Shown here: positions 28,764-48,775 of the stretch, piece after piece
Numbering within the stretch: position 1 is the stretch's first letter
Layout: each line of letters starts with the position of its first letter
DNA from: Deltaproteobacteria bacterium
Lineage (GTDB): Bacteria; Myxococcota; Kuafuiibacteriia; Kuafuiibacteriales; Kuafuiibacteriaceae
Assembly (NCBI GenBank): GCA_040218735.1
Contig: JAVJQW010000070.1
Span: 416,001-480,000, forward strand
Direction of reading: 5' to 3'
DNA: 64,000 nucleotides
Notes under the pieces: generated by a model
Told to the model about the DNA's origin: nothing
Databases searched by the model: none
The model's input: only the letters and a program-made list of their open reading frames with translations
Translations under genes and position numbers: made by a program

Positions 28764-28871
28764 GCGGGAGCCGTTAACACGCGGCGCTCCCATTTGCACA
28801 CGATGTGCAACCGCGTTGCGCGACTCGGGAAACCCACTGCGCAACGCGCCGGGCGCGCCCAAGGTGCGACG

Positions 28872-28888
28872 TTGGCACGACGAGTGCG
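28872..28888 (+). promoter_or_regulatory. Sigma54 (-24/-12) promoter
   Basis: TTGGCACGACGAGTGCG, with GG at 28874-5 and GC at 28886-7 (N10 spacing), 35 bp upstream of ATG 28923. Confidence 0.7.
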
Positions 28889-28922
28889 AAGGCGACGGAG
28901 CATGGGAGGGACTTCAATACTC

Positions 28923-30539: not shown

Positions 30540-32315
30540 GTGGTAGTCTCCCCGCGCTTGGCTTCCGACTTTCAGGACGCGCCGACGATCACCCGTCACC
30601 AGCAGACGCAGGCGCCGGTGCGCCTCTGTCTGGTCGTCGTCGGGGAGAGCACGTTCTGCACCCAGCCGCTGCCCGAGTCCGGCCACGTGACCATCGGGCG
30701 CGCGGAGACCAACGACGTCCGCATCGATGACCCGTCGGTCTCCCGCGAGCATGCGATCCTCCACGTCGAAGACGGCCTGTGGATCGAAGACCTCGGCAGC
30801 GCCAACGGCACGCACGTCGACAAGGCGCGCATCGGATCCAAGCGCCGCATCGAGGTCCAAGCCGACCACGTGATCGAGATCGGTTCGTCGATGGTGATCG
30901 TGCAGCGCACGTCGTCCGTGCGACCGCGCCGCCTCTGGACCCACGACTACTTCGAGGCCCGCATCGAGGACGAGTGCGAGCGGGCCCGTCGCTCGCGCGC
31001 GCACTTCTCGGTGTTACGCCTGCACGTCGACGGCGCGAAGCCACGGCGCGTCCAGAGCACCCTCGCCGCGGAGCTCTCCTCGGCGGACGTCATCGCCGCC
31101 TACGGCCCGGACGAATACGAGGCGCTCCTCGTCGACGCGAACCACGAACGCGCGACGGAGGCGGCCCAACGCATCGTGATGGCGCTCGACGAAGTCGACG
31201 CCCGCTTCGGCCTCGCGACCTACCCCCTCGACGGCTCTACGCCCGAAGCGCTGATCGCCCACGCGTGTGAGGCCGTACGCGCCCCGTCGTCGCCCGCGCC
31301 GAGCTCGGGCCCGCCGCTGGTGATGAAAGACGACGCGATGTGCGAGCTGTACCGCGTCGTCGATCGCGTCGCGGCCGGCACGATCAGCGTGATGCTCCTC
31401 GGCGAGACCGGCGTCGGCAAAGAGGTCGTCGCGGAGGCGGTCCACCGCCGCTCCCCCCGGCGCAACGCTCCGTTCGTCCGCCTCAACTGCGCCGCGCTCT
31501 CGGAGTCGCTCCTGGAAAGCGAGCTGTTCGGCCACGAGAAGGGCGCGTTCACCGGCGCCGACGCAACGAAACCCGGGCTCCTCGAGACCGCGTCCGGAGG
31601 CACGGTGTTCCTCGACGAGGTCGGCGAGCTCCCCGTGGCGTTGCAAGCCAAGTTGCTCCGGGTGATCGACGAGAGGAAGGTGCTGCGGGTCGGCGGGCTA
31701 CAGCCCCGCCCGATCGACGTTCGCATCCTCTCCGCCACGAACCGCGACCTCGAGCAGGAGGTGCTCCGACGCGCCTTCCGCGCGGATCTATTCTTTCGCT
31801 TGAATGGAATCTCCCTAATCATCCCGCCGTTGAGGCAGCGCCCGGCGGAGATCGTGCCGTTGGTCGAGGCCTACGTCGCGCACCTGTCCTCGGCGATCGG
31901 CGTCGCCGCGCCCGAGGTGAGCGACGACGCGATCGCGATGTTGGAGCGGTACAGCTGGCCCGGGAACATCCGCGAGCTGAAGAACTTCATCGAGCGCGCG
32001 ATCCTGTTGTGCACGGACGGCACGATCCGCCCCGAACACCTCCCCGTGGAGAAGATGCGCGCGACGCTCCTCGCCACGGCGCCCGAGGACCTCCCGCGCC
32101 CGCCTGCCCCGGACGCCGACCTCTTCCTCGCCGACGGACCGGAGGCGGACCTCACCGACGCCGAACGCCGAGAGCGCCGCGCGATCGTCGAAGCCCTCGA
32201 AGCGTGCGGCGGCAATCAGACCGCCGCCGCGAAGAAGATCGGCGTCTCCCGGCGCACGCTGGTGTCGCGCCTCGACAAGTACGCCATCCCCCGCCCGCGC
32301 AAGTCCGTGAGCTGA
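30540..32315 (+). CDS. Sigma54-dependent enhancer-binding protein (FHA + degenerate GGDEF-like + AAA+ + HTH)
   Basis: IGRA..ND...VSREHA...DLGSANGT (FHA), [49 protein letters not shown]. Confidence 0.93.
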
Positions 32316-32422
32316 AGCCGTCCGGGCTGAGGCCGTCCGGAGGCGCCGAGGCATTTCTCCACACTCCGCGCACGGTTCCTCACCCGCGCCCCGCTGGCGC
32401 GGAGTCTGCACATGTCGCACGT

Positions 32423-35400
32423 GTGTCCGCCGGGACTCGCGCACGCCGTCTCCTCATCGCCCTCGCCGCCGCGCTCGCGGCCCTGGTCGTCTGCGCGATC
32501 GGCGTGGTCGGCGCGCTGCACGTGCCGTCGGTGCAGCGCCGCGTGCTCGACGAGATCGAAGCCGCCGTCACCGCTTCGATCCACGGGCGGCTGGAGCTCG
32601 GGGACCTGTCCGGCGCGCTGCTCTTCGGACACGTCGAGGTCGGACCGTCGCGGCTCGAAGACGAGCGAGGGCGCGCGCTCGTCTCGGTGGAGCGGGCGTC
32701 GGTGAACGTCGAGTGGCTGGACTCCCTGCTCGCGGGCGGGCTCGTCGCCGAGGCGATCGTAGTCGCGTCTCCGCGTGTCTGGATGGAGGTCGACGCCCAC
32801 GGCAACAGCTTCTCGCGCCTCCCCAAGAACACCGCCACCGACACCAGCACGAGCCCCACGTTCTCACCGGTCGACATCGTCGTCCGCGACGCGACGCTGC
32901 AGGACGGTTCGTTCGAGCTCGTCGCTCCGGATCGGCGTCTGTACTTCGCGGACGTCGAGGCGACGCTCTCGGGCGCCGTCGGCGCCGAGCGCATCGACGC
33001 GACCGTCGCGCACCTCGGCGCGTCGTCCGCGCTCCTCCCCGAAGGCGCACATGTCCGCGGCGCGGTCGCGCTGCACCCGGACCACCTCACCGGTCACGCC
33101 ACGGTCGAAGACGCCGCGGGAAGCGTGGTCACGCTCGCCGACGCACGCCTCGACTACACCGGCGTTCGGATCCGCACCGACTTCGACGCCCGCATCGAAC
33201 CCCCCACCGTCGCGCGCTACGCACCCGGGCCGACGATCCAGGGGGCGCTCGCCGGGACGTTCGAGCACGAAGCGGACGGTGCCTGGAAGCTCGCCGCCGA
33301 AGGACACACGCTCGGCGCCGACGTCGACATCGACGCCACCGCGGACGACGCGTTCGACGCCATCACCGCGAAGCTCGACACCGAGCCCGGCGTCGACCTG
33401 TCTCGGCTTCATGCCGCCCTCCCCGCCTCCGCGCTCGCCGTGCACGCAATCGTCGCGCTGACCGATCTCCCCGCGCTCACAGGGACCGCGAAGGCCTCGA
33501 TCGAGGGACGCGTCAACGCGGTCGACATGCACCCGCTCCTGATTCGTAGCCTCGAAGCCAACGCCCGCGTCGACGACGGTGCGTTCGTCGCCTCCGCGCA
33601 CCTCGACGCCGACGGCGCCGAGCTCGACGCCGACGCCGAGGGCCGCCTCGATCGCTTCGAGCTCGACCGGGCGGACCTGAGCTTCACCGTCCCCCGCCTC
33701 GCGCGGCTACTCGGACGACCCCGGATCGACGGGCACGTCCGCGGACACGCGACCCTCCGCGATGCGAAGGTCGCGGCTCGGCTCCGCGGGCGACACGTCC
33801 TCTTCGACGGTGTGAAGGCCGGGCGCGTCGACGTCCGCGCCGACCTCGAAGCCCCCTTCGAAGCGCCCCGCGGGACGGCGAAGGTCGACGTCGAAGGCCT
33901 CGCCGTCGAGGCGCAGCACCTCGGCGACGTCCGTCTGCGTGTGAAGCGCGAGGGCACCGGCCCATACGACGTGACCGTGCGTTCCCGCGGCGGCGCGCCC
34001 GCGCTCGAACGTGTCGACGCCGCGCTCGCGGTCGACCTCACCGAGGACCGAGTCGTCGCCGAGATCCGACGGCTCCGCGCCCGGGCGATCGGTTCACGGT
34101 GGCGCGTCGGTCGCGGCGCCCGCGTCGCGCTCGCGGACGACTTTCGCGTCCTCACCGTCGACGCGCTGAGCGTCTCCACGGAGGACACCCGCGTCTCCGC
34201 GAAGGCCACGATCGACCTCGGCGCGCAACGAATCGAAGCGCTCCGCGTCGACGTCCCCGAGCTCCACGTGAACACGTTGCGCCGCGCCGGGTGGCTGCCG
34301 CGCGGTGAGGTGGACGGCGCATGGTCCGCGAAGGTGCGAACGCGGGACGGCATCCTCCACGCGGACGTCGCCGTGTTCGGCGACGACGTCGGCCGCGGGC
34401 GCGCCGCCGCGCGCGTCACGCTCCCGAGGCGCCCGTTCGACGTCGGAGCTTGGCGTCGCCTCACGGCGGACGACGTCCGACGCCTGAAGCTCGACCTCGC
34501 GCGGCTCGACGTCGGCGCGGTGCAGCGCATGTTCGGCGTGCGGCCCGTCGTGACCGGCGCTGCGTCCGGCGGCATCACGTTTGCGCGCGGCCAGCTCCGT
34601 CGGGGCGCCATCGATCTCGACGACGGCCGCATCGAGGGCCTCTCCCGAGATGTCGCCGTCTACGTGAGCGTCGAAGCCCCCGAGCGCCCGTGGGTGCGCG
34701 TCCGCGTCACCGGCGTGCTCGACGGCACCCCCGTGCTCGCGAGCCGGATCGAGGTGAACGCGGATCCGATCCGGCTCCGTCGTGACGGTCTCGAAGCGCT
34801 GCGCGCGGCAAACTTCACCGCGAACACGCACCTCACCGACTTCCCGCTGTCGGCGATCGAAGGGCCCCGTCGAATGGCCGGCGTCGTGACCGGCACCGTC
34901 GCCGTCGCACGTCGCCATGAGGCGCTGGATCTCGTGGTCGACGCCGAAGCGACACGAGTACGACTCGGCGAGCGCTGGCCGCTCTTCGACCTCACCGTCG
35001 ACGGCCGCTCGGAGCGCGGACGCGTCGAGGTCGACGCTCGACTTCGAACCAACGACGCGGGCCACCTCACCCTGGCGGCGCGCGGACGTGCCCCCGCCGA
35101 CGCCACGAACGTCACCGCGTGGACGCAGATGCGCCTCGACGACCTCGAGACCATCGAGGTCCACGCCGACGGCGCGCGCCTCGAAGCCTGGGGACGTGCG
35201 TTCGACCTCGACGGACTGCGCGGCGTGCTCGGCCTCGACGCCCTCGTCCGAGCCCGCGGCCGCACCGGTGAAGCCTCGGTGCGCCTCGACGGGTTCTCGA
35301 TGGGCGACCGCGCCGCGATCGACGCACAGGTCTACGTCGACGGGCGCCCCGACCGCACCACGCTGGAGGCCACGGCGTTTGCGAACGAACGCCCCATCCT

Positions 35401-37084
35401 CGAAGCCCACGCCACCTCCCCGCTCAGCCTCGGGCGCCTCACTTCGACTTCCACGCGGGCCGTACCGGACCTCCCGGTCGACGCGACGATCGCGGCGGAG
35501 CAGATCCCCCTCGCCCTCGTCGCGGCGCTGCTCGATCTCGACGACCCGCTCGCGGGCCACGTCGCGATCGACGGGGAGCTCTCGGGTCGGCTCGGCGACC
35601 CCCAGCTCGCCGTGCACGTGGTCTCCGAAGACCTCGGCGTCGGCGACACGCGGTTCGAGACGTTCGACGTCGACGTGAACCTCGACGCGCAACGGTTCGC
35701 CGCGGACGTCAGCGTGCGCCAGGTCGGCGGCGGGCGCCTCGAGCTCGACGGGACGCTCGGGCTCGGCGGCGACGACACCCTCGACCTCGACCTCGACGCC
35801 AGCGAGCTACAGCTCGACTTCCTCTCCCCGCTCATCGGAGCAAACGGCGCCTTCGGCGGGGTGGCGGGACGTATCGACGGCAACGTCTCGATGGACGGCA
35901 CCCGGCGCCGCCCCCTCGTCGCCGGCGCGCTCCGGCTCGAAGACGTGCGCGCCGTCCTCGTTCACCCGGTTCCGCCGATGGAGCACGTCGACGGCGAGCT
36001 CTTGTTCGAAGACGACCGCTTGCGGTTCGCCCTCCGCGGCGCCTCCGGCGACGGGCGGTTCACGTACGAAGGCGAAGCCCACGCAGACCGAGCCGGGCGC
36101 CTCGAGATGAGCTCCGAGCTCGAGGTCGCCGACGTCGCCGTCGCGGCCGGCCCCAAGATCCTCGAGACGGATCTGTCCGCGAAGATCGAGCTGCTGTTCG
36201 CCGAACAGCTCGACGTCGACGTGCTCGTCACGGACGGCAACGTGAAGCTCCCGTCCCGCGGAGCCTCCGAGCGGCTCCCCGTCGAACGGCTCGAACACGT
36301 CGTCGTCGTCGACGAGCTCGGCGCCGCCCCCCCCGCGATCGAGAGTGCCAACGCCGACGACGGCTCGGCCCTGGCCTACCGCGTCCAGGTCCGCACCGCC
36401 GGACAGGTGCCGATCCGCAGCGCCGACCTCAACGCCAACCTCGTCGCCGACCTCACCGTCGCCCAGGCCGACGGGCCCCCGACGACGAGCGGGTTCGTCG
36501 AGGTCACCTCCGGCACGGTGAACCTGTTCGGGCGCCAGTGGACGATCGACAACGCCGACGTCCGCTTCGCGGCGGGCCGCGACCGGCGCCCGCGGCTCGA
36601 CGTACGCGTCCGCCACGACTTCCCGAACGTCACCGTCTACGTCGCGGTCTCCGGCTCACCCGAGGATCCGCGCGTCCGCTTCAGCTCGGACCCCGCGATC
36701 TTTTCCCAGGACCAGCTGATCGGCTTCGTCCTGGGCGGCACACCGAGCTCCTCAGAAGAGGACGCCCCCCTCGCGGACCAGGCCGTCGGCGCCGCGACCG
36801 GATTCCTGCTCGGCGAGGTACAGTCGCGCCTGCAAGACAAGTTGCCGATCGACACCATCTCGGTCGACCTCGACGACACCGCGTCCGCGGAGGCGGTCAG
36901 CGTCGGCAAGTGGATCAGCAGCCGCATTTTCGTCGCGTACAACCTGAGGCTCGCGCCCGAATCCGACGAGAACGCCAACGCGGGCCTCGTGCAGTTCCGC
37001 CTCGGGCGCGGCTGGATGCTCGAGACGACCTACGGCGACCGCGGCAACGGCAGCGCCGACATCCTCTACCGGAAGAGGTTCTAG
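32423..37084 (+). CDS. tamB: Translocation and assembly module TamB (AsmA-like)
   Basis: N-terminal TM anchor, long beta-rich body, C-terminal DUF490-like end (VSG..EDP.V.FSSDP, VGKWIS, DILYRKRF). Lies directly upstream of the Omp85 gene. Start estimated at GTG 32423. Confidence 0.82.
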   Translation: MSAGTRARRLLIALAAALAALVVCAIGVVGALHVPSVQRRVLDEIEAAVTASIHGRLELGDLSGALLFGHVEVGPSRLEDERGRALVSVERASVNVEWLDSLLAGGLVAEAIVVASPRVWMEVDAHGNSFSRLPKNTATDTSTSPTFSPVDIVVRDATLQDGSFELVAPDRRLYFADVEATLSGAVGAERIDATVAHLGASSALLPEGAHVRGAVALHPDHLTGHATVEDAAGSVVTLADARLDYTGVRIRTDFDARIEPPTVARYAPGPTIQGALAGTFEHEADGAWKLAAEGHTLGADVDIDATADDAFDAITAKLDTEPGVDLSRLHAALPASALAVHAIVALTDLPALTGTAKASIEGRVNAVDMHPLLIRSLEANARVDDGAFVASAHLDADGAELDADAEGRLDRFELDRADLSFTVPRLARLLGRPRIDGHVRGHATLRDAKVAARLRGRHVLFDGVKAGRVDVRADLEAPFEAPRGTAKVDVEGLAVEAQHLGDVRLRVKREGTGPYDVTVRSRGGAPALERVDAALAVDLTEDRVVAEIRRLRARAIGSRWRVGRGARVALADDFRVLTVDALSVSTEDTRVSAKATIDLGAQRIEALRVDVPELHVNTLRRAGWLPRGEVDGAWSAKVRTRDGILHADVAVFGDDVGRGRAAARVTLPRRPFDVGAWRRLTADDVRRLKLDLARLDVGAVQRMFGVRPVVTGAASGGITFARGQLRRGAIDLDDGRIEGLSRDVAVYVSVEAPERPWVRVRVTGVLDGTPVLASRIEVNADPIRLRRDGLEALRAANFTANTHLTDFPLSAIEGPRRMAGVVTGTVAVARRHEALDLVVDAEATRVRLGERWPLFDLTVDGRSERGRVEVDARLRTNDAGHLTLAARGRAPADATNVTAWTQMRLDDLETIEVHADGARLEAWGRAFDLDGLRGVLGLDALVRARGRTGEASVRLDGFSMGDRAAIDAQVYVDGRPDRTTLEATAFANERPILEAHATSPLSLGRLTSTSTRAVPDLPVDATIAAEQIPLALVAALLDLDDPLAGHVAIDGELSGRLGDPQLAVHVVSEDLGVGDTRFETFDVDVNLDAQRFAADVSVRQVGGGRLELDGTLGLGGDDTLDLDLDASELQLDFLSPLIGANGAFGGVAGRIDGNVSMDGTRRRPLVAGALRLEDVRAVLVHPVPPMEHVDGELLFEDDRLRFALRGASGDGRFTYEGEAHADRAGRLEMSSELEVADVAVAAGPKILETDLSAKIELLFAEQLDVDVLVTDGNVKLPSRGASERLPVERLEHVVVVDELGAAPPAIESANADDGSALAYRVQVRTAGQVPIRSADLNANLVADLTVAQADGPPTTSGFVEVTSGTVNLFGRQWTIDNADVRFAAGRDRRPRLDVRVRHDFPNVTVYVAVSGSPEDPRVRFSSDPAIFSQDQLIGFVLGGTPSSSEEDAPLADQAVGAATGFLLGEVQSRLQDKLPIDTISVDLDDTASAEAVSVGKWISSRIFVAYNLRLAPESDENANAGLVQFRLGRGWMLETTYGDRGNGSADILYRKRF

Positions 37085-38980
37085 GTGCGCCGCCTTGGCC
37101 TTGCTCCGCTCCTCTTCGCGGCCGCGTGTGCCTCCGGACCGCAGAGCCCACCCGGCGTCGGCGCGGTCGAGATCCACACGGCCGCGCCGACCGACGTCGA
37201 CGTCGACGCCCTGAAGGACGGCCTGGAGAACCACCCGCCGCGCGGCGTCGTGTTCCGCGAAGTCGCCGACTACGAGCCGCTCGCCCTCGAGTTCGACAAG
37301 ACCCGCATCGAGACCTTCTTCGCGCGCCGCGGCTACTACACGGCGAAGGTCACGGACATCACGGTGAAGGAGCGCGGGGAGGAAGCGCTGATTCACTTCG
37401 AGGTCGAGCCGGGCCCACGCTCGGCGTTGAAGTCGATCGACATCGACGGCGCCCCGGACGCCGCGCTCATGAACGCCGAGGCGCTCCGTTTGTGCTCGCT
37501 GTTGGAGGTCGGCGAGCGCGTCGACTACGACCGCATCGTCGAAGCCGAACAACGCATGACCGCGCGCCTCAACCACCAGGGCTACGCATCCGCGAAGGTC
37601 GTGCCCCGGCTCCAGGTCGAGCGCGGCACCGGCGATGCGATCGCGCACTTCCTGGTCGACACGGGCCCCCTCACCTACTTCGGCGACGCGCTCACGAGCA
37701 CGGCGTCCGAGCTCCCGGACACGTTCGTCTACAACCGCGTCGCGTGGCGCAGCGGCGACGTCTTCAACCCGCCGGACCTCGAACAGACCCGCGCGCGCCT
37801 CCTGAAGACGGGACTGGTCGACGACGTGCGCTTCGTCGAGCGCGAAGGTCAGCGCGACGACATCCTCGACGTGAAGATCGAGGTCGCGCGCGGTGAGCCC
37901 CGTGAGTTCACGGTGGGCGCCGGCGTCGGTCTGCAGCAGTCCTTCTACGAGCTACGCGGGCGCATCGGGTACCGGCACAAGAGCTTCCTCGACCCGCTGA
38001 CCACGGTGCGCCTCGAGGCCCGCCCCGCCTACGCGATCTTCAACAACGTCTCCACGGGCTCCGGCGCGGGCGGCAAGTTCAACTGGGAAGCCCGCGCGGC
38101 GCTCGACCGCGAGGACTTCGTGTTCCCGCGGCTCCGCGGCACCGTCGGCGCCGACTTCGAGCGCATCCAGCTCGACGGGTACACGGCGACCGGACCCGGC
38201 GCGAAGGTCGCGCTCGGCCGTGAGTTCCTCGACGACCGCCTGCAGATCGCGTTGGGCCTCCACGTCGACCAGCGCAACTTCTCCAACGTGACGTACCAGC
38301 TCGACGACGCGGAGCGCGGGGACGTCGGGCTGATCGATCCGCTCCTCGTCGGCTACGCGGCGCCGTCCATCACCTACGACGGACGCGACAACCCCCTCGC
38401 GCCGCGCGCCGGCTTCTACGCCTCCGTGCGTACCGAGGTCGGCTACGTGTTCTCGGCGGACACTTCGACGTTCCTCATCGTCACACCCGAGCTGCGCGGC
38501 TACCTGCCCCTCGGGGACCGCGTCGTGCTCGCGGGGCGCTCACGCTTCGGGGTCGCGGCGCTCGGACTCCGCCCGCTCCCGATCACCCACCGCTTCTTCG
38601 GCGGCGGCGCCGACGGCCACCGCGGGTTCGGCCGACGACGCCTCGCTCCGCACGTCCCCTCCACCGACGACGACGCCGGGTTGCCGGTCGGTGGAGAGGC
38701 GATGCTGCTCACCAGCGCGGAGGTGCGCGTCGATCTGTTCGAGGTGCTCGAGCAGATGTTCGGGCTCGTCGCGTTCGTCGACGTCGGTGACGTGGTGCTC
38801 GACCTGTCCGAGCTGGACCCGAAGCGCCTGCACGTCGCCGTCGGTCCGGGCGCCCGGCTCGACACGCCGGTCGGTGCGGTGCGGTTGGACGTGGGCTTTC
38901 GCGTGAACCGCAACACCGCCGGCAACCCGGATCCGGGAGCGCCGTTTGCGTTCCACCTCAGCCTCGGGGAGGCCTTCTGA
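37085..38980 (+). CDS. tamA: Omp85/TamA-family outer membrane protein
   Basis: POTRA-like domains, RFFGGG...RGF, GGE, TPVGAVRLDVG, C-terminal HLSLGEAF. Confidence 0.85.
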   Translation: MRRLGLAPLLFAAACASGPQSPPGVGAVEIHTAAPTDVDVDALKDGLENHPPRGVVFREVADYEPLALEFDKTRIETFFARRGYYTAKVTDITVKERGEEALIHFEVEPGPRSALKSIDIDGAPDAALMNAEALRLCSLLEVGERVDYDRIVEAEQRMTARLNHQGYASAKVVPRLQVERGTGDAIAHFLVDTGPLTYFGDALTSTASELPDTFVYNRVAWRSGDVFNPPDLEQTRARLLKTGLVDDVRFVEREGQRDDILDVKIEVARGEPREFTVGAGVGLQQSFYELRGRIGYRHKSFLDPLTTVRLEARPAYAIFNNVSTGSGAGGKFNWEARAALDREDFVFPRLRGTVGADFERIQLDGYTATGPGAKVALGREFLDDRLQIALGLHVDQRNFSNVTYQLDDAERGDVGLIDPLLVGYAAPSITYDGRDNPLAPRAGFYASVRTEVGYVFSADTSTFLIVTPELRGYLPLGDRVVLAGRSRFGVAALGLRPLPITHRFFGGGADGHRGFGRRRLAPHVPSTDDDAGLPVGGEAMLLTSAEVRVDLFEVLEQMFGLVAFVDVGDVVLDLSELDPKRLHVAVGPGARLDTPVGAVRLDVGFRVNRNTAGNPDPGAPFAFHLSLGEAF

Positions 38981-39045
38981 ACCCCGGACCCAAGACCGAC
39001 GGTCGCTGCCTTTCGCGCCGTCGGTTCTTGCCCTATAGAAGCGGC

Positions 39046-39681
39046 ATGAAAGTGGAAGATCTGCAGGCTGCCCTCGTTGGACGAGGTTGGACTGTCGAAG
39101 TGAAGAAACCCAAAGACCTGGACCCACCGCACAAGCTGGTGAAGGTCCTGAAGGGGGGCCTCTTCAAGTGCGTCGATGGTCGCTTCTCCGACCAGGCCGC
39201 CATGCGAGGTCCGAAAGCCCTGGGTGGCGTGTACGCCATCGCGTCCATGCGAGGCGCACGCACGGTGGCTGAGCTCCAGAAGATCGTCCAGGACATGAAC
39301 AAGGCCGGCAAGTACACGCCGTGCGTGCACGGGGACACCCACGGGGGCCCGCTCGGCTGCGGTTACTTCAAGCTCTGGAAGACGGGGCAGCTGCCTGGCC
39401 TGACTCCGCCGAAGTACGACGGCGACTTCGGACGCGCGGCCGTGCTCGCGGCGGGCGGGGTCTACGAGGGCCTCGTCGGTTCGCACGAGGAGTCGTTCAC
39501 GGTGATCAACCTGAAGCCGAACACGACGCTCGAGCCGAACTACGAGAACCAGCGCTTCGTCCTCGACGCATGGGTCGCCAAGGAGTTCCGCATCGATCTC
39601 GCCAAGTACGCAGTGACGGCGGCGGAGACGGTCGAGCGGCTACGCCCCGCGGCGATGCACGCGGTCATCGTCGTGCCCTGA
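39046..39681 (+). CDS. Zeta-class (cadmium, CDCA1-like) carbonic anhydrase, single repeat
   Basis: GRGW, KCVDGR, GPK..GG.YAIA, VHGD, LGCG.FKLW.TG, GSH.E, INL..N.TLEP, QRF.(L/V)D.W and terminal IVVP match the diatom CDCA1 repeat as I recall it. Confidence 0.88.
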   Translation: MKVEDLQAALVGRGWTVEVKKPKDLDPPHKLVKVLKGGLFKCVDGRFSDQAAMRGPKALGGVYAIASMRGARTVAELQKIVQDMNKAGKYTPCVHGDTHGGPLGCGYFKLWKTGQLPGLTPPKYDGDFGRAAVLAAGGVYEGLVGSHEESFTVINLKPNTTLEPNYENQRFVLDAWVAKEFRIDLAKYAVTAAETVERLRPAAMHAVIVVP

Positions 39682-39715
39682 ACCGAGCCTGTACGGATCG
39701 CTCGCGCACGTTCGA

Positions 39716-40666
39716 TCAAAGATCGTTCGTGCGCTCGAGCTCGTCGTCTTCTTCTTCGTCACCGCCGACAACCTGATTTCGGCCGCCGTCCTTCGCGGCG
39801 TACAGGCGCTCGTCCGCAGCTTTGATGAACGAGTTCGGGTCGCGGTGCGGCCCCATCTCGGCGATGCCGATCGACACGGTCACGTCGATGTCCCGGTCCT
39901 CGTAGACGAAGGGCGACGACTCGACCATGCGCCGGATCTTCTCCGCGAAGATACGCGCGCGCGCTCCGTTGGTCTCGGGCATGAGGATGGCGAACTCCTC
40001 GCCACCGTAACGTGCAAACGCCTCCTCCTTGCGGATGTGTTTGCTGACCATCTCGGCGAGCCGACGAAGGACGAAGTCACCCGCGAGGTGCCCGTGCACG
40101 TCGTTCACCTGCTTGAAGTGGTCGATGTCGAACAACAGCAACGACAGCGGGCGATCGTAACGTGCACAACGCGCCATCTCGCGGTCGATGAACTCCATGA
40201 AGTAGCGCTTGTTGTTCACCTGCGTCAGACCATCGACGATGGTCATCCGGTAGATCTCTTCGTGGAACAGCGCCTCGATGTTCCCGCCCTGGAGGAACTT
40301 CAGGATCGCGCCGCCGATCTTGATCAGGTCGCCGTTGCGGAGCCGATCGAACTTCACCTCGATGTCGTTGACGTACGAGCCGTTCGTCGACTTGAGGTCC
40401 TCGATGTAGAAGCCGTCCTTCTTCGAGAGCACGCGCGCATGGCGGCGCGACACGTTGTCCATGTCGAGGACGATGTGGCTCTCGGCGCCGCGGCCGATCA
40501 CGATCTCCTCCTGGTCCAGCGTGTACTGCTTCCCGAGGTCGCGACCGTAGATGGTCACGAGGCACGACTCCGTGGAGATGGCCTTGTCGATGATCCGCGA
40601 GACGGAAGAGACGCGAGTCTCCTCGTCCTGTCCGGCCATCTCGGCAAATTCCATCACGCCGTTCAT
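39716..40666 (-). CDS. FHA-domain diguanylate cyclase
   Basis: IGRG...VSRRHA...DLKSTNGS (FHA), DGLT, DIDHFKQVND.HGH.AGD, RYGGEEF. Confidence 0.92.
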   Translation of the reverse strand: MNGVMEFAEMAGQDEETRVSSVSRIIDKAISTESCLVTIYGRDLGKQYTLDQEEIVIGRGAESHIVLDMDNVSRRHARVLSKKDGFYIEDLKSTNGSYVNDIEVKFDRLRNGDLIKIGGAILKFLQGGNIEALFHEEIYRMTIVDGLTQVNNKRYFMEFIDREMARCARYDRPLSLLLFDIDHFKQVNDVHGHLAGDFVLRRLAEMVSKHIRKEEAFARYGGEEFAILMPETNGARARIFAEKIRRMVESSPFVYEDRDIDVTVSIGIAEMGPHRDPNSFIKAADERLYAAKDGGRNQVVGGDEEEDDELERTNDL

Positions 40667-40741
40667 ACTACGACCTCCCGTGGCCTCGAAGGTATCGGGG
40701 TCGATGTAGCGCGTGCGGCGCCCGAGTACGCGCGAGTGGGA

Positions 40742-42172
40742 TCACTGCGGTGCAGGGTCGCTCGTCTCGTCCGTCGGCACGTCGCCGATGGCACCGGGCG
40801 CGCTCGCCGAAGACTTCGGCGGCGACGAAGGCGGCGTGGACTGGGATGATTCGGGCGGCGCATCGGCGTTTTCGACCTCGGAGGTCCCCAGTCGACTCAC
40901 CTCGCGCCGGATGTTGTCCAGCTCCGCGAAGGGCGGCATCGCCGCGGCTTCGCTTCGGGCGTCGGAGAGGGCCTCGTTCGTCGCACGCAACCGGTGAGAC
41001 AAGACCTGCACGAAGCTCCACAGGAGCTTCGAAGACAGGACCGGCTCCGTGCGCACCAGCCCGTAGAACGCTTTTCGAGAAAGCGACATCAGTCGAGTGT
41101 CGTTCCGCGCTCGGACGGTGGCCGATCGCGGCGAACGGTCCACCAGCGCCATCTCTCCGAAGTGCACCCCGGGTCCCAACACGGTGAGCGGACGCCCACC
41201 CTTGGTCACCTCCACCTCCCCGGAAAGGATGATGTAGAACTCGTCGCCGTCCGACTGCTCCTCGATGACGATCTGTCCGTCCTCGTAGGCGCGCTGCTGG
41301 GTCTGGTTCAGGACCTTCACCAGCTCCTTGTAGTTGAGGTGCCGAAACAGCGGGATGCGGCGGAGGATGTCGAGCTTCTCGATGACATCGACCGCCGACG
41401 GGTCGCCCGCGTCCCCCGGGACGCGCAGCACCACGACCGTGATGTTGTCCTTACCGCCGCGCGCGTTCGCCAGGCCGACGAGCCGCCGCGGGATCTCTTC
41501 GCCGTCCTCCTGGAAGAGGATCTGGGCGAGCTCGGCCTCGCTCTCGACGTAGCCGTGCATCCCGTCCGAGCACGCGAGGTACGTGTCGCCGGGGAGGATG
41601 TCGAAGACGAGGGTGTCGACCTGCACCGTCTCGGTGATGCCGACGGCGCGGGTGATGACGTTCGAAAACGGCGACCGCTTCGCCTCCTCGACGGTGATCG
41701 CGCCCTTCTTGATCTGCTCCCACAGGTACGAGTGGTCCTCGGAGAGCTGGTGAATCTGGTTCGCCCGCGCCAGGTACACACGCGAGTCGCCGACGTGCGC
41801 CATGAAGGCCTTGTTCCCCACGAGGAGGATCATGGAGAGCGTCGTCCCCATGCCGTGGCGCTTCTTGTCGCGCTGGGCCATGTGGTAGATGGCGCTCGAC
41901 GCGACGTTGATCGCGAGCTCCACCTCCCGAAGGATCTTGGCGCGTTTCTCCGGCGTCGGGTTCTGCGCGAAGTCGTCGAGCAGGGCCTTCTTCTTGACCA
42001 GCTGCTCCTGGACGCACCGCAGCCCGTAGGCCGAAGCGACCTCACCGGCCGCGTGACCGCCCATGCCGTCCGCGACGGCGTACAGCCCCAGCTGGTCGTC
42101 GATCAGCCAGCCGTCTTCGTTGTGTTTTCGGGCTCGGCCGACATCGGTGAGGGCCCAGGAATCAACACGCAT
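40742..42172 (-). CDS. PP2C-family Ser/Thr phosphatase with a C-terminal cyclic-nucleotide-binding domain
   Basis: TDVGR.R.HNED, VADGMGGH, GMGTT, HVGDSR, CSDG, GGKDNIT, then FGEMAL...PRSATV. Confidence 0.92.
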   Translation of the reverse strand: MRVDSWALTDVGRARKHNEDGWLIDDQLGLYAVADGMGGHAAGEVASAYGLRCVQEQLVKKKALLDDFAQNPTPEKRAKILREVELAINVASSAIYHMAQRDKKRHGMGTTLSMILLVGNKAFMAHVGDSRVYLARANQIHQLSEDHSYLWEQIKKGAITVEEAKRSPFSNVITRAVGITETVQVDTLVFDILPGDTYLACSDGMHGYVESEAELAQILFQEDGEEIPRRLVGLANARGGKDNITVVVLRVPGDAGDPSAVDVIEKLDILRRIPLFRHLNYKELVKVLNQTQQRAYEDGQIVIEEQSDGDEFYIILSGEVEVTKGGRPLTVLGPGVHFGEMALVDRSPRSATVRARNDTRLMSLSRKAFYGLVRTEPVLSSKLLWSFVQVLSHRLRATNEALSDARSEAAAMPPFAELDNIRREVSRLGTSEVENADAPPESSQSTPPSSPPKSSASAPGAIGDVPTDETSDPAPQ

Positions 42173-42226
42173 CGGTTAGGGACGGCCTTTCAGTCCCCGG
42201 CACGCTAGCAACACCCGATCATGGGG

Positions 42227-43198
42227 TCAAATTAGCGAGGCGAGCGCCGTCTCGGGCCGCGCACCGTAGTGCTGGATGACCTCGGCGGCCGCGATCGAGG
42301 CGATGCGACCGGCCTCCGCGAGCCCCTTGCCGTGTGTGTAGCCGTACAAAAAGCCCGCCGCGTACAGGTCCCCCGCGCCGGTGGTGTCGATCAGCTGGTC
42401 GATCGGCGCCGCCGGCACCTCGACGATCTCGCTGCCGGACACGATGACGCTGCCCTTCTCGCTGCGCGTCAGCGCGGCGATCTCGCAGTGACCCTTCACG
42501 TGTTTCACGGCCTCGTCGAACGACTCGACCTCGTACAGCGACGTGATCTCCGACTCGTTCGCGAAGAGCAGATCGATGTGCCCCTCGACCAGATCGAGGA
42601 ACGCCGCACGGTGGCGCCCCACGCAGAAGCCGTCCGACAGCGTGAGCGCGACCTTCTGCCCTGCCTCGTGCGCGACCTTCGCGGCCTTGTAGAACGCCTC
42701 CTTCGCCTGCGGCGGGTCGAAGAGGTACCCCTCGAGGTACGTCACCTTGCTCGCCGCGACGAGCGCCTCGTCGATGTCGTCCGGCCCCAGCTCCACACAC
42801 GCCCCGAGGAACGTGTTCATCGTGCGCTGCGCGTCGGGCGTCACGAGGATCAGGCAGCGCGCGGTGGGCGCCCCGCCGTCGAGCGGCTTCGTCGTGAACG
42901 CGAGCCCGCCCGCGCGGATGTCGTGGGAGAACACGGCGCCGAGCTGGTCGTTCGCGACCTTCCCGATGTACGCGCCCGTCCCGCCCAGCGAGGCGACGCC
43001 GGCCATCGTGTTCGCCGCCGACCCGCCCGAGACCTCGACCCCCGCCGCCATCTTCGCGTACAGCGCGTCGGCTTGGGCGGCGTCGATGAGCGTCATCGCG
43101 CCCTTCTCGATGCTGTTCGTGGTGAGGAAGTCGTCGTCCGCCTTGGCGAGGACGTCGACGATGGCGTTTCCGATTCCGAGTACGTCGTATTGGGTCAT
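42227..43198 (-). CDS. Adenosine kinase (PfkB family)
   Basis: GIGNAIVD, SGGSAANT, RTMNTFLG, FANESE, DTTGAGDLYAAGF. Confidence 0.88.
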   Translation of the reverse strand: MTQYDVLGIGNAIVDVLAKADDDFLTTNSIEKGAMTLIDAAQADALYAKMAAGVEVSGGSAANTMAGVASLGGTGAYIGKVANDQLGAVFSHDIRAGGLAFTTKPLDGGAPTARCLILVTPDAQRTMNTFLGACVELGPDDIDEALVAASKVTYLEGYLFDPPQAKEAFYKAAKVAHEAGQKVALTLSDGFCVGRHRAAFLDLVEGHIDLLFANESEITSLYEVESFDEAVKHVKGHCEIAALTRSEKGSVIVSGSEIVEVPAAPIDQLIDTTGAGDLYAAGFLYGYTHGKGLAEAGRIASIAAAEVIQHYGARPETALASLI

Positions 43199-44584: not shown

Positions 44585-47500
44585 GTGCGCGTCGGATCCA
44601 GACCACTCGAGACGCTCCGTACGGGCGACGACGATCCCGCGACACCGCGCGCCGCGGAACCGCTGCGTCTCCCCGACGCGCCCCGCACGACCGGCGCGGC
44701 GAAGTCGAACACGAAGCCGCGCTCCACGAGCGGGGTCGCCGCGTTCATGACGAATGCGCTGCGGCGCTTCGACAAGGCGGCCGCCGCGGTGATGATCGGC
44801 GCCCTGCCGCTCCCCGCGCTCGCGGGCGGACCGCTCCTCGCGGAGGACCACGCCCGGTTCGATCCCGAGGTCCGCATCGAGGCCCACGTCCTGCCGTGGC
44901 GCGCCGCGGGGGGCCTTGCCGGATCGGTCGACGCGCGCGACGTGTTCCAGGCGCACCTCACGGATCGCCTGCGCGACATCGAGGCCCAGCGCGCGCAGTT
45001 CCTCGCGACCGCGCCGCCCGACCCGGTGGTGCGGACGGATCTGCTGCGCCTGTCGGAGGTCGTGCGGCGCTTCGATCGAATGGTCGACGGCGCCCGGCTC
45101 CCCCCGAACCTCCTCGCCGACATGGACCGTGTCCTCGACGCGATCGAGGCGGCCCGGCCGGGGGTCTACACGCCGGCGATCGATCTCGCGTTGCTCGACC
45201 TTCCCTCGGTGTCGCGCGTCGAGGTCGGTGCACCGACGATCCCCGCGGCCGACCTGACCGCGATCCTCGACGCCTCGCCGACCGACCTCCCCGACCAGAT
45301 GGCGGCGGTCCTCGCCAGTTACTCGGCGATCATGTCGAACGCCGACGCTGCGCTGAACGTGCTGCCGGGCTTCACGTACGTCAGCCCCGTCCCGCTGTTC
45401 TACGACTCGGGCGATGGTGTGCTGCTCGTCCCGCCCGGCGCGACGGTCGAGAGCCAAAACGGTCAGTTCTCGATCCACGCGCCGCAGATGTTCTGGCGGC
45501 AGGACGGTCTGCTCGTCGCCGCCGAAGAAGGCACCGTCCACCTCGGTTCCGAGCTCGACGGCCTCACCGCGAGCACCGCCTCCGCGCAGGGGGACGACTG
45601 GTCCGCGGTCACCGAGGACTTCGTCGCCGGCGTGCGACGCGACGACGGCTACGGCGTGATCGCCGCGCGGCGCATGGACCTCGATTTAGCGTCCGGCTCG
45701 GCGCACCTCGAAGACGCCGAGCTCGTCGTGGCCGACACCGGCGACGCGGAGCTGTTCGCCGGGGCGCTCGACTTCTCGGCCGGCAACCGAACGCTCTCGG
45801 CCGACACCCTCACCGCGACGCAGACCCGCGACGGGACGACGGCGTCCGCGGCGCACATCGCGTTCGGCGACGGCGTCACTTCGATCTCGGGTTCCGCGGT
45901 CGACCTCCACTTCGGACCGAACGGCGCGACGCTGAGCGGCGAACGGCTCGACATCACGAACGGCACGACCCGCGGCACGCTCGAAGGCGCTCGGGCGTCG
46001 CTCCGTCCGACCGACGACGGGCACGACCTCGCGTTCGTCGCGGACCGCGCCCACTTCGAGGACGGCGTTCAGACGATCGATCTGTCGGGCGCCGACGCAA
46101 ACGCGAGCTTCGACGCCGACGGCCACCTCACCGCGCTCGATGGTCGGGCGAGCAGCACGAACGTCACCACGGGCGCCGGCGCGTTCATCGGCACCAACGG
46201 CGCGATCGCGGCGCGCTTCGACCGGGGCACCCTCACCGCGATCGACGCGAGCACCGCGACCGGTCAGTGGACCGGGACGGACGGGACCGTCGTCGCCGCG
46301 AGCGACGCGGGCCTCGCCCTCGCCTTCGATGACGGTCGCCTCCGCCAGGCGACGCTCGCGTCCGGTGCGCTCCACGTCGTGCAGGGCGACCACGACGCCG
46401 CCCTCCAGGGCCTCGACCTGAACGTCGCGTTCGACGAAGCGGGTCACCTCGACGAGGCCACCGGCCGCGCCGCGCGCCTCGACTACCGAAACACCGACGG
46501 CACCCTCGTCGGCGCGGGCGACGTTCGGTTGAACGTCGACGCGACCGGCGGCGTGCTGGATCGTGTGCAGCTCGCGGCCGGGCAGCTCGACTACCAACGC
46601 GGAGCGGAGTCCCTCGCGGTCACGAACGGCACCCTGGTCCTCGACGCGGAGGGCGGTCGTGTGACCCACGCCGTCGCGACGTTCGACGCCGCGACCTACG
46701 AGGCCGGCTTCGGGCGCCTCGCACTCGCGGGGACGTCGCTGTCGATCGACTACACCGACGACGGCACGACCTTCCACGGCTTCGCCGAGCACCTCGACCT
46801 CGCGAACGACGGCGGGCGCCTCCTCGTCGACGGCGGCGCGGTGAACGGCTCGCTCCGCCCGGACGGTACGCTGGAGGCGTTGGGTCTGTCCGGCGACCAC
46901 CTCGCGTACACGGGCACGACCGAGGGCGACCACCCGCTCGTCGTCGACCTCGCGAGCCCGTCCGCCGTGCTCACCGCGCTCGACGGCGGCGGGCAGCGGC
47001 TCGACTTCACGACCGGCGCCGGTCACTTCGAGGTCGACGGTCACCGGGTCGCGCTCGAAGGCCTCGAACTGCTCACGCTCACCACCACCCCCGACGGCGA
47101 GGTCGACACCTTCGCGGCGGACTTCGACGGGCAGCTCGACTTCGTCCAGCGCGGCGGCGACCTCACCGTCCTCACACGTGACGTCGAGACGACCTACGAC
47201 CGTGCGACCTCCACGCTCACGCTGGACTTCGCGGAGGCCGACGTCGCCCTCCGCAGCGCGGGGCTGCAGGCCCGCATCGAGGGGGCGCACGGCGAGCTCG
47301 ACGATTCGCGCGTCTTCATCTCCGTCGACCGCGCCGAGGTGCTCCGCGATCTCGGCGAGCAGCTGAACGTCGAGGTCGAGTCCCTCACCGTCGAAGCCAC
47401 GCGCACCGCGACGGGCGCGCTGCAGACGCTCGACCTGTCGCTCGCGAGCCTCGACGCCGACATCGCCGGCATCCACGCGATCGTCCGGACGCCGGACGGG

Positions 47501-48775
47501 GAGCGCCTGCGGCTGCACATCGGCACCGACGAGAGCGGCCAGACGGTGCAGCACGCCTACCTCCTCATCCCGGAGGGCGGCGAGGTGCGGCTCACGCAGG
47601 ACGACGACAGCGTTCGGCTCGGCGGCCAGCTCATCAGCTACACCCTCGGCGACGATGGCATCTACCGCCTCCGCGGCGAGAGCCTCGACCTCGAAGCGAG
47701 GACGAAGGACTTCGGCGTGCGGGTCGAGGGCGGCGACGCGCAGGTCTCGCTCGACCCCGCGACGGGGCGGCTCACGATCGACGAGATCACCGGCACCCGC
47801 ATCGACGTGAATCACGACGATCTCGCGTTCACGATCGACGTCGAAGCGATGAACGACTTCATGGTCCGCGCGACGCGCCTGAGCGGCGGCGCCACGGGCC
47901 TCGCCTTCCACCTCGAGCCCACCCGCGACGGCTCGAGCCTGACCGCGTTCACCACGGGCGAGGTCGGCGGGCTCCCGTTCACGCTGGGCTTCTCGAACGT
48001 GCACGAGCTGGAGGGGCTCGGCGCCATCTCCGAGAACCAAGTGCATGCCTACTTGCGCGACCCGAGCGGGCGCGGCCACATCGAGCTCGGCTTCGGGCCG
48101 CTCGAGATGTCGGGGTCCGCGCTGGAGTTCGTGGGGCGTTACCACCCCTACGACGCCGGGCGAATGCTCGAGACGGTGCAGCGCTACACGACGCTCGCCG
48201 GCACCGAGGTGTTCAGCGGCCTCTCCTTCGACCACGACGGCGTGGTCCGCCTCGGCACCGACCGCGAGGGCCTCAACGCCGAGCTCGCCGTGGTCCTCCC
48301 GCGCCAGTACGCCCTCCCCGGCTACCGCTTCGCGGTCACGGACCAACCGGCCGCGGCGCCGGGCGTGATCGGCAGCGTCGGCTGGCGCCACGAGGACTTC
48401 ACGTTCAGCGTCTTCGGCGGCCTCGTCCCCGGCGCACACGCGACCGGCTACGTGAAGGAAGGCGACGCGTCGTTGTTCGGCGTCGGCGTCCCGGACCGCT
48501 TCGACCTCCCCGCCACCGTCATCGGCGGCGGCCGCGTCGACCTGGGCAACTTCGCGAACGGCGACCTGTCCGTCGTCGCCGGCGGCTACTACAACCCTGC
48601 GAGCGCCGTCGACAGCCCGTTCCTCAACGAGCCCACGGCCTTCGGCGCCTTCGGCGGCCTCGAGTACCGCGACGACGACGGCTGGTTCGTCAACGGCAGC
48701 GCCGTCGCGGACTTCGACCGAGGCGGCACGGTCCAGGGCGGCGCCGTGATGCTGATGCTCGGCGCGAAGTTCTGA
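44585..48775 (+). CDS. Large hypothetical beta-strand-repeat protein (1396 aa)
   Basis: Open frame with host-like codon usage, quasi-repeats 'FD..G.L......G.L.Y', C-terminal aromatic ending LGAKF. Start uncertain. Confidence 0.72.
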   Translation: MRVGSRPLETLRTGDDDPATPRAAEPLRLPDAPRTTGAAKSNTKPRSTSGVAAFMTNALRRFDKAAAAVMIGALPLPALAGGPLLAEDHARFDPEVRIEAHVLPWRAAGGLAGSVDARDVFQAHLTDRLRDIEAQRAQFLATAPPDPVVRTDLLRLSEVVRRFDRMVDGARLPPNLLADMDRVLDAIEAARPGVYTPAIDLALLDLPSVSRVEVGAPTIPAADLTAILDASPTDLPDQMAAVLASYSAIMSNADAALNVLPGFTYVSPVPLFYDSGDGVLLVPPGATVESQNGQFSIHAPQMFWRQDGLLVAAEEGTVHLGSELDGLTASTASAQGDDWSAVTEDFVAGVRRDDGYGVIAARRMDLDLASGSAHLEDAELVVADTGDAELFAGALDFSAGNRTLSADTLTATQTRDGTTASAAHIAFGDGVTSISGSAVDLHFGPNGATLSGERLDITNGTTRGTLEGARASLRPTDDGHDLAFVADRAHFEDGVQTIDLSGADANASFDADGHLTALDGRASSTNVTTGAGAFIGTNGAIAARFDRGTLTAIDASTATGQWTGTDGTVVAASDAGLALAFDDGRLRQATLASGALHVVQGDHDAALQGLDLNVAFDEAGHLDEATGRAARLDYRNTDGTLVGAGDVRLNVDATGGVLDRVQLAAGQLDYQRGAESLAVTNGTLVLDAEGGRVTHAVATFDAATYEAGFGRLALAGTSLSIDYTDDGTTFHGFAEHLDLANDGGRLLVDGGAVNGSLRPDGTLEALGLSGDHLAYTGTTEGDHPLVVDLASPSAVLTALDGGGQRLDFTTGAGHFEVDGHRVALEGLELLTLTTTPDGEVDTFAADFDGQLDFVQRGGDLTVLTRDVETTYDRATSTLTLDFAEADVALRSAGLQARIEGAHGELDDSRVFISVDRAEVLRDLGEQLNVEVESLTVEATRTATGALQTLDLSLASLDADIAGIHAIVRTPDGERLRLHIGTDESGQTVQHAYLLIPEGGEVRLTQDDDSVRLGGQLISYTLGDDGIYRLRGESLDLEARTKDFGVRVEGGDAQVSLDPATGRLTIDEITGTRIDVNHDDLAFTIDVEAMNDFMVRATRLSGGATGLAFHLEPTRDGSSLTAFTTGEVGGLPFTLGFSNVHELEGLGAISENQVHAYLRDPSGRGHIELGFGPLEMSGSALEFVGRYHPYDAGRMLETVQRYTTLAGTEVFSGLSFDHDGVVRLGTDREGLNAELAVVLPRQYALPGYRFAVTDQPAAAPGVIGSVGWRHEDFTFSVFGGLVPGAHATGYVKEGDASLFGVGVPDRFDLPATVIGGGRVDLGNFANGDLSVVAGGYYNPASAVDSPFLNEPTAFGAFGGLEYRDDDGWFVNGSAVADFDRGGTVQGGAVMLMLGAKF

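Follow-up and report, generated by a model that had tools for sequence, protein, structure and literature searches.

A myxococcotal genome encodes a predicted single-repeat carbonic anhydrase (CA) of the zeta class, the class of the diatom enzyme CDCA1, and the protein keeps the predicted metal ligands, the Asp-Arg dyad and the modelled fold of a CDCA1 repeat. The gene occupies positions 39046..39681 (+) of the window, by which we mean the whole stretch of 64,000 nucleotides analysed here; it runs from an ATG start to a TGA stop (included) and encodes 211 residues. Its identity as a bacterial CDCA/zeta-CA family member with a single repeat, which a first-pass annotation had proposed from the letters of the DNA, is supported by sequence, ligands and fold, the evidence being drawn from the translated reading frame, the Pfam profile PF18484, the solved CDCA1 repeats and an AlphaFold2 model. 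We consider it probable that the product is a cytoplasmic, single-domain zeta-CA, accessory to a beta-CA, which was acquired laterally within Bacteria long ago and has been kept in near-identical strains. Bacterial zeta-CAs are not new as a kind, because databases already name bacterial members and Pfam covers them, and the window's gene is one of more than 100; its value lies more in the family-wide picture, which is bacterial, patchy and deep, than in the single gene.

Active site, fold and start codon

CDCA (PF18484, 'Cadmium carbonic anhydrase repeat') is the sole Pfam family matched by the protein (E 2e-57, 194.2 bits, cut-off 29.2), the match spanning positions 1-179 of the 184 in the profile, and a scan of the whole genome with the same model returned this gene, at 194.3 bits, as the single copy of the family. 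No NCBIfam model matches the protein, and the Pro_CA profile of the beta-CAs (PF00484) found nothing in its 211 residues at E<=0.01. When all PDB chains were searched with phmmer, CDCA1 repeats came first (3bob_A at E 1e-48, with query 7-211 on chain 8-210; 3uk8_A at 1.2e-48; 3boh_A at 2.4e-46) and the one further match was noise at E 0.45. These alignments run from residue 5-7 to residue 210-211, at 43-44% identity to the solved repeats, and set the three active-site motifs column for column against those of CDCA1. The end-to-end resemblance to one CDCA1 repeat described at first reading therefore stands, both by profile (E 2e-57) and against the repeats themselves (E 1e-48 to 2.4e-46), and the low similarity that an actual alignment might have revealed did not materialise. 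With the motifs in place and a full-length match at such values (E 2e-57; 1e-48), the resemblance cannot be due to chance. One domain fills the 211-residue reading frame, and the tandem architecture of 2-3 repeats is absent.

The reading frame and its motifs lie where the first-pass annotation had placed them. The codons for Cys42-Val-Asp44-Gly-Arg46 (CVDGR, residues 42-46; 39169..39183, +) would supply the first metal ligand together with the Asp-Arg dyad, D44 and R46 standing at +2 and +4 from the first Cys, whilst His95 in VHGD (39328..39330, +) and Cys105 in LGCG (39358..39360, +) are the predicted second and third ligands; each of these assignments draws on the alignment with CDCA1 and on invariance within the family. 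In the protein, the motifs extend to KCVDGR, CVHGD and LGCGY. The columns of C42, H95 and C105 are those which we take to hold the metal ligands in the CDCA1 crystal structures.

Seven residues, namely C42, D44, R46, G60, H95, C105 and H147, are invariant in an alignment of 100 sequences that reaches down to 23% identity (A1), and the identical seven columns are invariant amongst the 46 most distant members (A3). H147 lies in the motif GSHEE (codon 39484..39486, +), in which E149 is nearly invariant in the family. From 291 family proteins collected, 255 domains covering at least 165 of 207 profile positions were retained and shorter fragments excluded; the full set of Cys-Asp-Arg-His-Cys is kept in 247 of these 255 domains, with the window's protein amongst them. 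Nothing in the sequence or the model suggests a decayed or non-catalytic copy.

The AlphaFold2 model, computed with 100 homologues, has a mean pLDDT of 97.0 and a pTM of 0.92. Compared with the PDB by Foldseek at E<=0.001, it gave six matches, all of them CDCA1 repeats in Cd-bound, Zn-bound or metal-free form (TM 0.93-0.96, rmsd 1.3-1.7 Å), the best being 3bob (TM 0.95/0.96, rmsd 1.3 Å, E 4.6e-28); no beta-CA structure was found at this threshold, and the next match outside CDCA came at E 0.11 with a TM of 0.16. The ESM Atlas offered no usable feature match: its model of an N-terminally short form of the protein is poor (pTM 0.23), so that the structure rows derived from it (TM <= 0.33) are meaningless.

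This short form starts from residue 19, as does the public gene call of the same protein (P0002; 193 residues, 99% identical, 91% query coverage), which begins at 39100 instead of 39046, apparently 18 codons late. The ATG at 39046, chosen at first reading, looks the better start on sequence and model alike, because L10 and W15, both upstream of the public start, are invariant across the 37 closest homologues, and because AlphaFold2 confidently models a helix (3-12) and a strand (16-20) ahead of it. With the in-frame TTG at 39028 as its start, the protein would be six residues longer, but to these the homologues have no counterpart.

Genomic setting and distribution

The CA gene stands alone between tamA and a diguanylate cyclase (DGC) gene, an arrangement claimed for it at the outset and confirmed by Pfam matches in the flanking reading frames. 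Upstream lie a long reading frame with a C-terminal TamB domain (31340-37084, +; Pfam) and one for a TamA-like Omp85/POTRA outer-membrane protein (37085-38980, +; PF01103 E 6.4e-34, PF07244 E 9.8e-14), which by their sequences appear to be a TamB/TamA pair. The former, at 1914 residues, looks over-extended at its 5' end, where the first few hundred residues are Arg/Pro-rich and are followed by a membrane-anchor-like stretch; its true start probably lies well downstream of 31340. On the other side, a convergent FHA-GGDEF DGC gene begins 34 nt away (39716-40666, -; PF00990 E 8.6e-45, PF00498 E 7e-18), beyond which Pfam identifies a PP2C phosphatase with a cyclic-nucleotide-binding domain (40742-42172) and then a PfkB kinase. 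Second-messenger proteins cluster near the CA gene, the FHA-GGDEF and the PP2C/cNMP-binding proteins (39716-42172) being joined further off by a protein with two cNMP-binding domains (53546-54784); such neighbours are not conserved beside CDCA genes elsewhere. The wider window contains chromosomal housekeeping genes (CysS, CarD, LepA, NDK, RlmN, signal peptidase, SerA), and none of the reading frames scanned in it matched a mobile-element family. Two large reading frames, at 28128-30515 (795 aa) and 44585-48775 (1396 aa), have host-like GC3 and no Pfam match at E<=1e-5.

Between the stop of tamA and the start of the CA gene lie 65 nt, in which RNA folding gives a stable hairpin (38993..39027, +) with a 12-bp stem, a folding energy of -26.5 kcal/mol and a z of -2.83; none of 200 shuffles folded as well. 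No T-run follows it, and it may act as a terminator or an insulator, or be a palindrome to which a protein binds. Scans for consensus sigma-70 promoters and intrinsic terminators between 38700 and 39900 found none, the hairpin itself going unreported, and the 3' gap (39676-39722) has no notable RNA structure (z -0.34).

The first-pass annotation had also described the 5' part of the gene as less GC-rich than its neighbours. The raw dip is real, GC falling from 0.70-0.77 at the end of tamA to 0.60-0.625 over 39000-39299, but as a signal it is weak, because the DGC gene next to it is lower still (0.565-0.64). Taken whole, the CA gene has a GC of 0.652 and a GC3 of 0.853, compared with 0.689 +/- 0.033 and 0.899 +/- 0.046 across 35 reading frames of the window, and its first 100 codons alone stand out (GC3 0.78). 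At the level of the gene it is no compositional outlier, its GC3 lying within 1 sd of its neighbours; such a composition fits an old and largely ameliorated acquisition, or none at all, and does not fit a recent one.

When the PF18484 model was run over whole genomes, which are samples and several of them incomplete, the family was found in one of the 41 nearest relatives (the window's own genome, with none in the 19 others of its taxonomic family), in 1/20 genomes of its class, in 1/401 of an even sample of the phylum, in 2/73 of the order of Plesiocystis pacifica and in none of 14 control genomes. A wide vertical distribution in Myxococcota, named beforehand as something that would take away from the novelty of the gene, was thus looked for and not seen (1/401 in the phylum sample).

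Synteny with relatives, when checked, proved to be lost downstream of tamA. Four other members of the taxonomic family have the tamA orthologue and, within the stretches compared, lack the CA, FHA-GGDEF and PP2C genes. In the single genome from the same genus, which is 75% complete, the orthologous contig breaks off within tamA and leaves the gene content downstream out of view; two contigs of this genome, of which the tamA contig ends early, carry no FHA-GGDEF, PP2C or CDCA gene within the stretches compared. Since neither the CA gene nor the FHA-GGDEF and PP2C genes follow tamA in the four relatives, the CA gene sits at a synteny break and is not a clean insertion between conserved flanks.

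Near-identical strains that retain the gene occur in several samples, aquatic or host-associated. The stretch 36500-42500 is covered without a gap, at 52 differences, by a sponge-metagenome contig of 24,395 nt, and the tamA-CA and CA-DGC borders are bridged by contigs of aquaculture and biofloc runs. Apart from the possible source, three studies contributed sequencing runs in which at least half of the sampled words are present. An RNA run (X20) covered 20 of 30 bins and had no depth over 38912-39313; the only trace in an RNA library, a 229-nt contig that falls within the gene at 92.6% identity, could come from carried-over DNA or from a relative.

At large, CDCA is a small family, mostly bacterial and very patchy. 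Amongst 1.84 billion representative proteins, only 155 reach E<=0.001, and tightening the threshold to E<=1e-10 and then E<=1e-30 leaves 73 and 13; a collection of 5.8 billion clusters holds at least 129 homologues of similar length, of which the 120 listed all carry PF18484. The same collection has 23 longer homologues, almost all with two repeats and some from MMETSP/EukProt diatom transcriptomes. Of the 291 family proteins, 29 are multi-repeat forms, and those with two full repeats group with MMETSP/EukProt rows; tandem repeats mark the diatom form only and are not a defining trait of PF18484. Bacterial members are named 'cadmium-containing carbonic anhydrase' at source in Myxococcales, Myxococcota, Planctomycetota MAGs, Ca. 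Amarolinea aalborgensis (presumably Chloroflexota) and Ca. Beckwithbacteria (CPR), while the homologues of Plesiocystis pacifica SIR-1 and Pseudenhygromyxa are named 'hypothetical protein'. The novelty that the first-pass annotation implied was therefore overstated, as bacterial homologues, several of them under this very name, were already public. The Ca. Amarolinea aalborgensis protein (P0310) is 381 residues long, with its CDCA domain limited to residues 170-381.

A scan of genome contigs with the single protein as query found 2 loci, a query that reaches close relatives only and is no measure of rarity, and a metagenome scan with a 37-sequence alignment (A2) found 57. Eleven of these 57 loci have ordinary bacterial genes as neighbours, on contigs of 5-1288 kb whose GC ranges from 0.415 to 0.708, from which it follows that several phyla are involved; two-repeat loci, of 1.4-1.7 kb and a GC of 0.43-0.48, are as expected for diatom transcripts. 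No gene order is shared in the locus of a Myxococcota MAG (L002) or among the 11 bacterial loci, nor is there a consistent functional link. On one bacterial contig of 1.29 Mb, two CDCA genes (L017 and L051) lie about 810 kb apart.

Proposed activity and role

How would this protein work? A divalent metal would be coordinated by Cys42, His95, Cys105 and, in fourth place, a water molecule; Zn(II) is the default candidate, and under Zn scarcity Cd(II) or some other ion could possibly take its place. Oriented and activated by the Asp44-Arg46 dyad, this water would become a metal-bound hydroxide and attack CO2, yielding bicarbonate by the route used in CDCA1 and in beta-CAs. For CDCA1 itself, the Zn and Cd forms are both described as fast CAs in a passage of PMC7215798, which quotes kcat/Km figures. 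The protein is likely to be cytoplasmic, because its N-terminus, which the model shows as a structured helix, does not look like a signal sequence.

The genome encodes one beta-CA (PF00484), on another contig, and no alpha-CA, which is why we regard the zeta-class protein as a putative accessory enzyme that would act beside this beta-CA. The same beta-CA is also a counterpoint to an accessory CA, as the genome is already provided with one. The most economical reading is perhaps that of a second, possibly Zn-sparing source of bicarbonate, which could feed carboxylations, or else of a part in pH balance. Two loci elsewhere in the family are of interest here: at L017 (8001-9648), a Bestrophin_2 anion-channel gene lies 34 nt downstream of the CDCA gene on the same strand, plausibly making a pair of CA and bicarbonate channel, and at L043 (442-5065, on the bacterial contig of GC 0.415), two Na+/H+ exchanger genes adjoin the CDCA gene, a neighbourhood that hints at a role in pH homeostasis.

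Must CO2 hydration be the activity under selection? It need not, since CDCA1 also hydrolyses CS2 (in the relevant passage of PMC8217695), and perhaps selection acts instead on an activity that hydrolyses COS or CS2, with H2S and CO2 as products, for which fold and active site would be unchanged. We regard this as a real alternative, if an improbable one, because repeat R3 of CDCA1 does hydrolyse CS2, though slowly. A passage of PMC8217695 likens the hydrophobic substrate tunnel of R3 to that of the Acidianus CS2 hydrolase, and the beta-CA already in the genome could see to ordinary CO2 hydration; yet the assay described there used 10 uM enzyme over tens of minutes, whereas the hydration of CO2 by CDCA1 is, in the part of PMC7215798 that deals with it, near diffusion-limited. 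Nor does any sulfur-metabolism gene adjoin the CA gene, be it here or in the 11 bacterial loci.

Less probable still is a non-enzymatic protein that binds or senses metal, whether it buffers Cd and Zn or signals to the cyclic-nucleotide genes next door. Cys2His sites do bind Cd and Zn well, and FHA-GGDEF and PP2C/cNMP-binding genes do adjoin the CA gene, but these signalling neighbours are conserved neither at other loci nor in relatives, and pure metal binding would have no need of the Asp-Arg dyad or of the non-ligand residues G60, H147 and the nearly invariant E149, all of which are kept.

Phylogeny, origin and known systems

Three trees were built: a FastTree of all 255 domains, a quick IQ-TREE of 106 rows picked by hand to cover the clades, and a careful IQ-TREE of 77 rows, for which 38 long or redundant rows were dropped and 9 added, five of them bacteria-named. 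In all three trees, P0003 (79% identity) is the partner of the window's protein, and the two are joined next by L002, the protein of a Myxococcota MAG, and by three rows without a label, at a support of 100/98 in the careful tree. All eukaryote-named rows and all two-repeat rows fall into one separate clade in all three trees, supported at 100/98 (15 rows) and at 100/99 (23 rows, including unlabelled single-domain proteins). Closest to the diatom clade amongst the unlabelled single-domain rows are P0055, P0061, P0040, P0088, P0144, P0147, P0149 and P0114. With bacterial and diatom homologues in the same phylogeny, then, the window's protein belongs to a bacterial clade, apart from that of the diatoms. 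Its closest homologues are 60-79% identical and bacterial where labelled, and its identity to diatom repeats is about 48-55%. Two proteins, P0144 (467 aa) and P0068 (325 aa), combine PF18484 with PF18599 (LCIB/theta-CA) and so appear to be natural fusions of zeta- and theta-CA; they branch inside or next to the eukaryote-containing clade.

A recent transfer from a diatom to a bacterium, for instance via algal prey or a host-associated habitat, could draw on the 48-55% identity to diatom repeats, on the lowered GC3 (0.78) of the first 100 codons and on the presence of the strains in aquatic samples, but it is disfavoured to the point of being very improbable, given that the clade around the window's protein is made up of single-domain proteins from bacterial contigs (100/98), that the eukaryote-named and two-repeat rows form a clade of their own (100/98), that the nearest relatives, at 60-79%, are bacterial where labelled, and that the GC3 of the whole gene is 0.853 where the overall GC of diatom-type two-repeat contigs is 0.43-0.50. 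To judge from these comparisons, the window's gene does not appear to be a recent import from diatoms. A lateral acquisition within Bacteria, long ago, is what we prefer, because the family is patchy (1/41, 1/401, 1/20, 2/73), no gene order is shared and downstream synteny is lost; the codon composition would by now be nearly adjusted to the host.

And in which direction did the family travel? The first-pass annotation had thought the gene relevant to the origin or transfer of zeta-CAs, and this holds in so far as the family is mostly bacterial and patchy and the protein lies in a bacterial clade; the compositional hint is weak, and approximately unbiased (AU) tests are compatible with more than one polarity. 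A bacterial origin of the diatom enzyme is favoured by the sequences, because the family spans several bacterial phyla and has one shallow eukaryotic clade. The distant part of the family, with proteins of Beckwithbacteria, Amarolinea and organisms labelled 'bacterium', is bacterial where labelled, and when the tree is rooted on it, successive bacterial groups precede the diatom lineage (support 95/85, 85/56, 96/92, 91/87, 75/85, 94/90). On this rooting the diatom clade nests amongst bacteria, but a sister position likewise passes the AU test, so that a bacterial origin counts as favoured and not as shown. The separation of the core bacteria-labelled rows from the eukaryotic and distant rows, groups that were named after the trees had been seen, was not rejected either in the careful tree (p 0.39) or in the quick one (p 0.846, where the free search was 41.6 lnL units worse than the constrained one).

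We posit, as a tentative idea against which the balance still leans, that zeta-CAs arose and diversified in Bacteria as single-domain enzymes, that diatoms took one copy from a marine bacterium and duplicated it in tandem, and that the bacterial enzymes, the window's among them, are cambialistic in vivo, each a Zn-sparing second CA. If so, cadmium or another substitute metal would be useful to heterotrophic marine bacteria, beyond diatoms. The protein described here, a close-to-diatom bacterial homologue with an intact predicted site, found in strains from sponge, aquaculture and biofloc, should be easy to express, and with it one could ask directly whether Cd/Zn cambialism is older than the diatoms, and whether bacteria have a part in the biological use of cadmium at sea.

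The literature has placed the class elsewhere. A statement in PMC4413181 has the zeta class 'identified only in diatom species', table 1 of PMC7215798 gives its distribution as 'Diatoms', and a 2026 survey of microbial CAs (PMC13098186) describes it, in the passage concerned, as mainly restricted to diatoms and protozoa; CDCA1 is presented in passages of PMC4413181 and PMC8217695 as the first evidence of natural cadmium use by an enzyme. Our search of open-access full text, outside which lie subscription papers and the supplements of PMC13098186 and PMC8119650, found no paper on a bacterial zeta-CA, and no study of the named bacterial homologues.

With these named homologues the window's protein has much in common: they are single-domain proteins of about 205-225 residues with PF18484 and the same catalytic set, and are 47-60% identical in the core group. 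Those of Plesiocystis/Pseudenhygromyxa and those of Planctomycetota fall outside its own subclade, and gene order is not shared with them. The beta-CAs (Pro_CA, PF00484) resemble it in their Cys-His-Cys site and in an Asp-Arg dyad next to the first Cys, and the chemistry is presumably the same; unlike them, it has no Pro_CA match, and no beta-CA appears amongst its Foldseek matches at E<=0.001. The nearest known system is CDCA1 of Thalassiosira weissflogii (PDB 3BOB, 3BOH, 3BOJ, 3UK8, 7BEZ), which we take to have three repeats, as the PDB titles name domains 1-3. Diatom-type proteins have at least two repeats per chain, whereas the window's protein has one, in 211 residues; it also differs in its bacterial host and high-GC codon usage, and in being known here from sequence and model. 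Both carry PF18484, with 43-44% identity over the repeat, the Cys-His-Cys ligands and the Asp-Arg dyad occupy the same columns, and the predicted model matches the fold of CDCA1 with a TM of 0.95.
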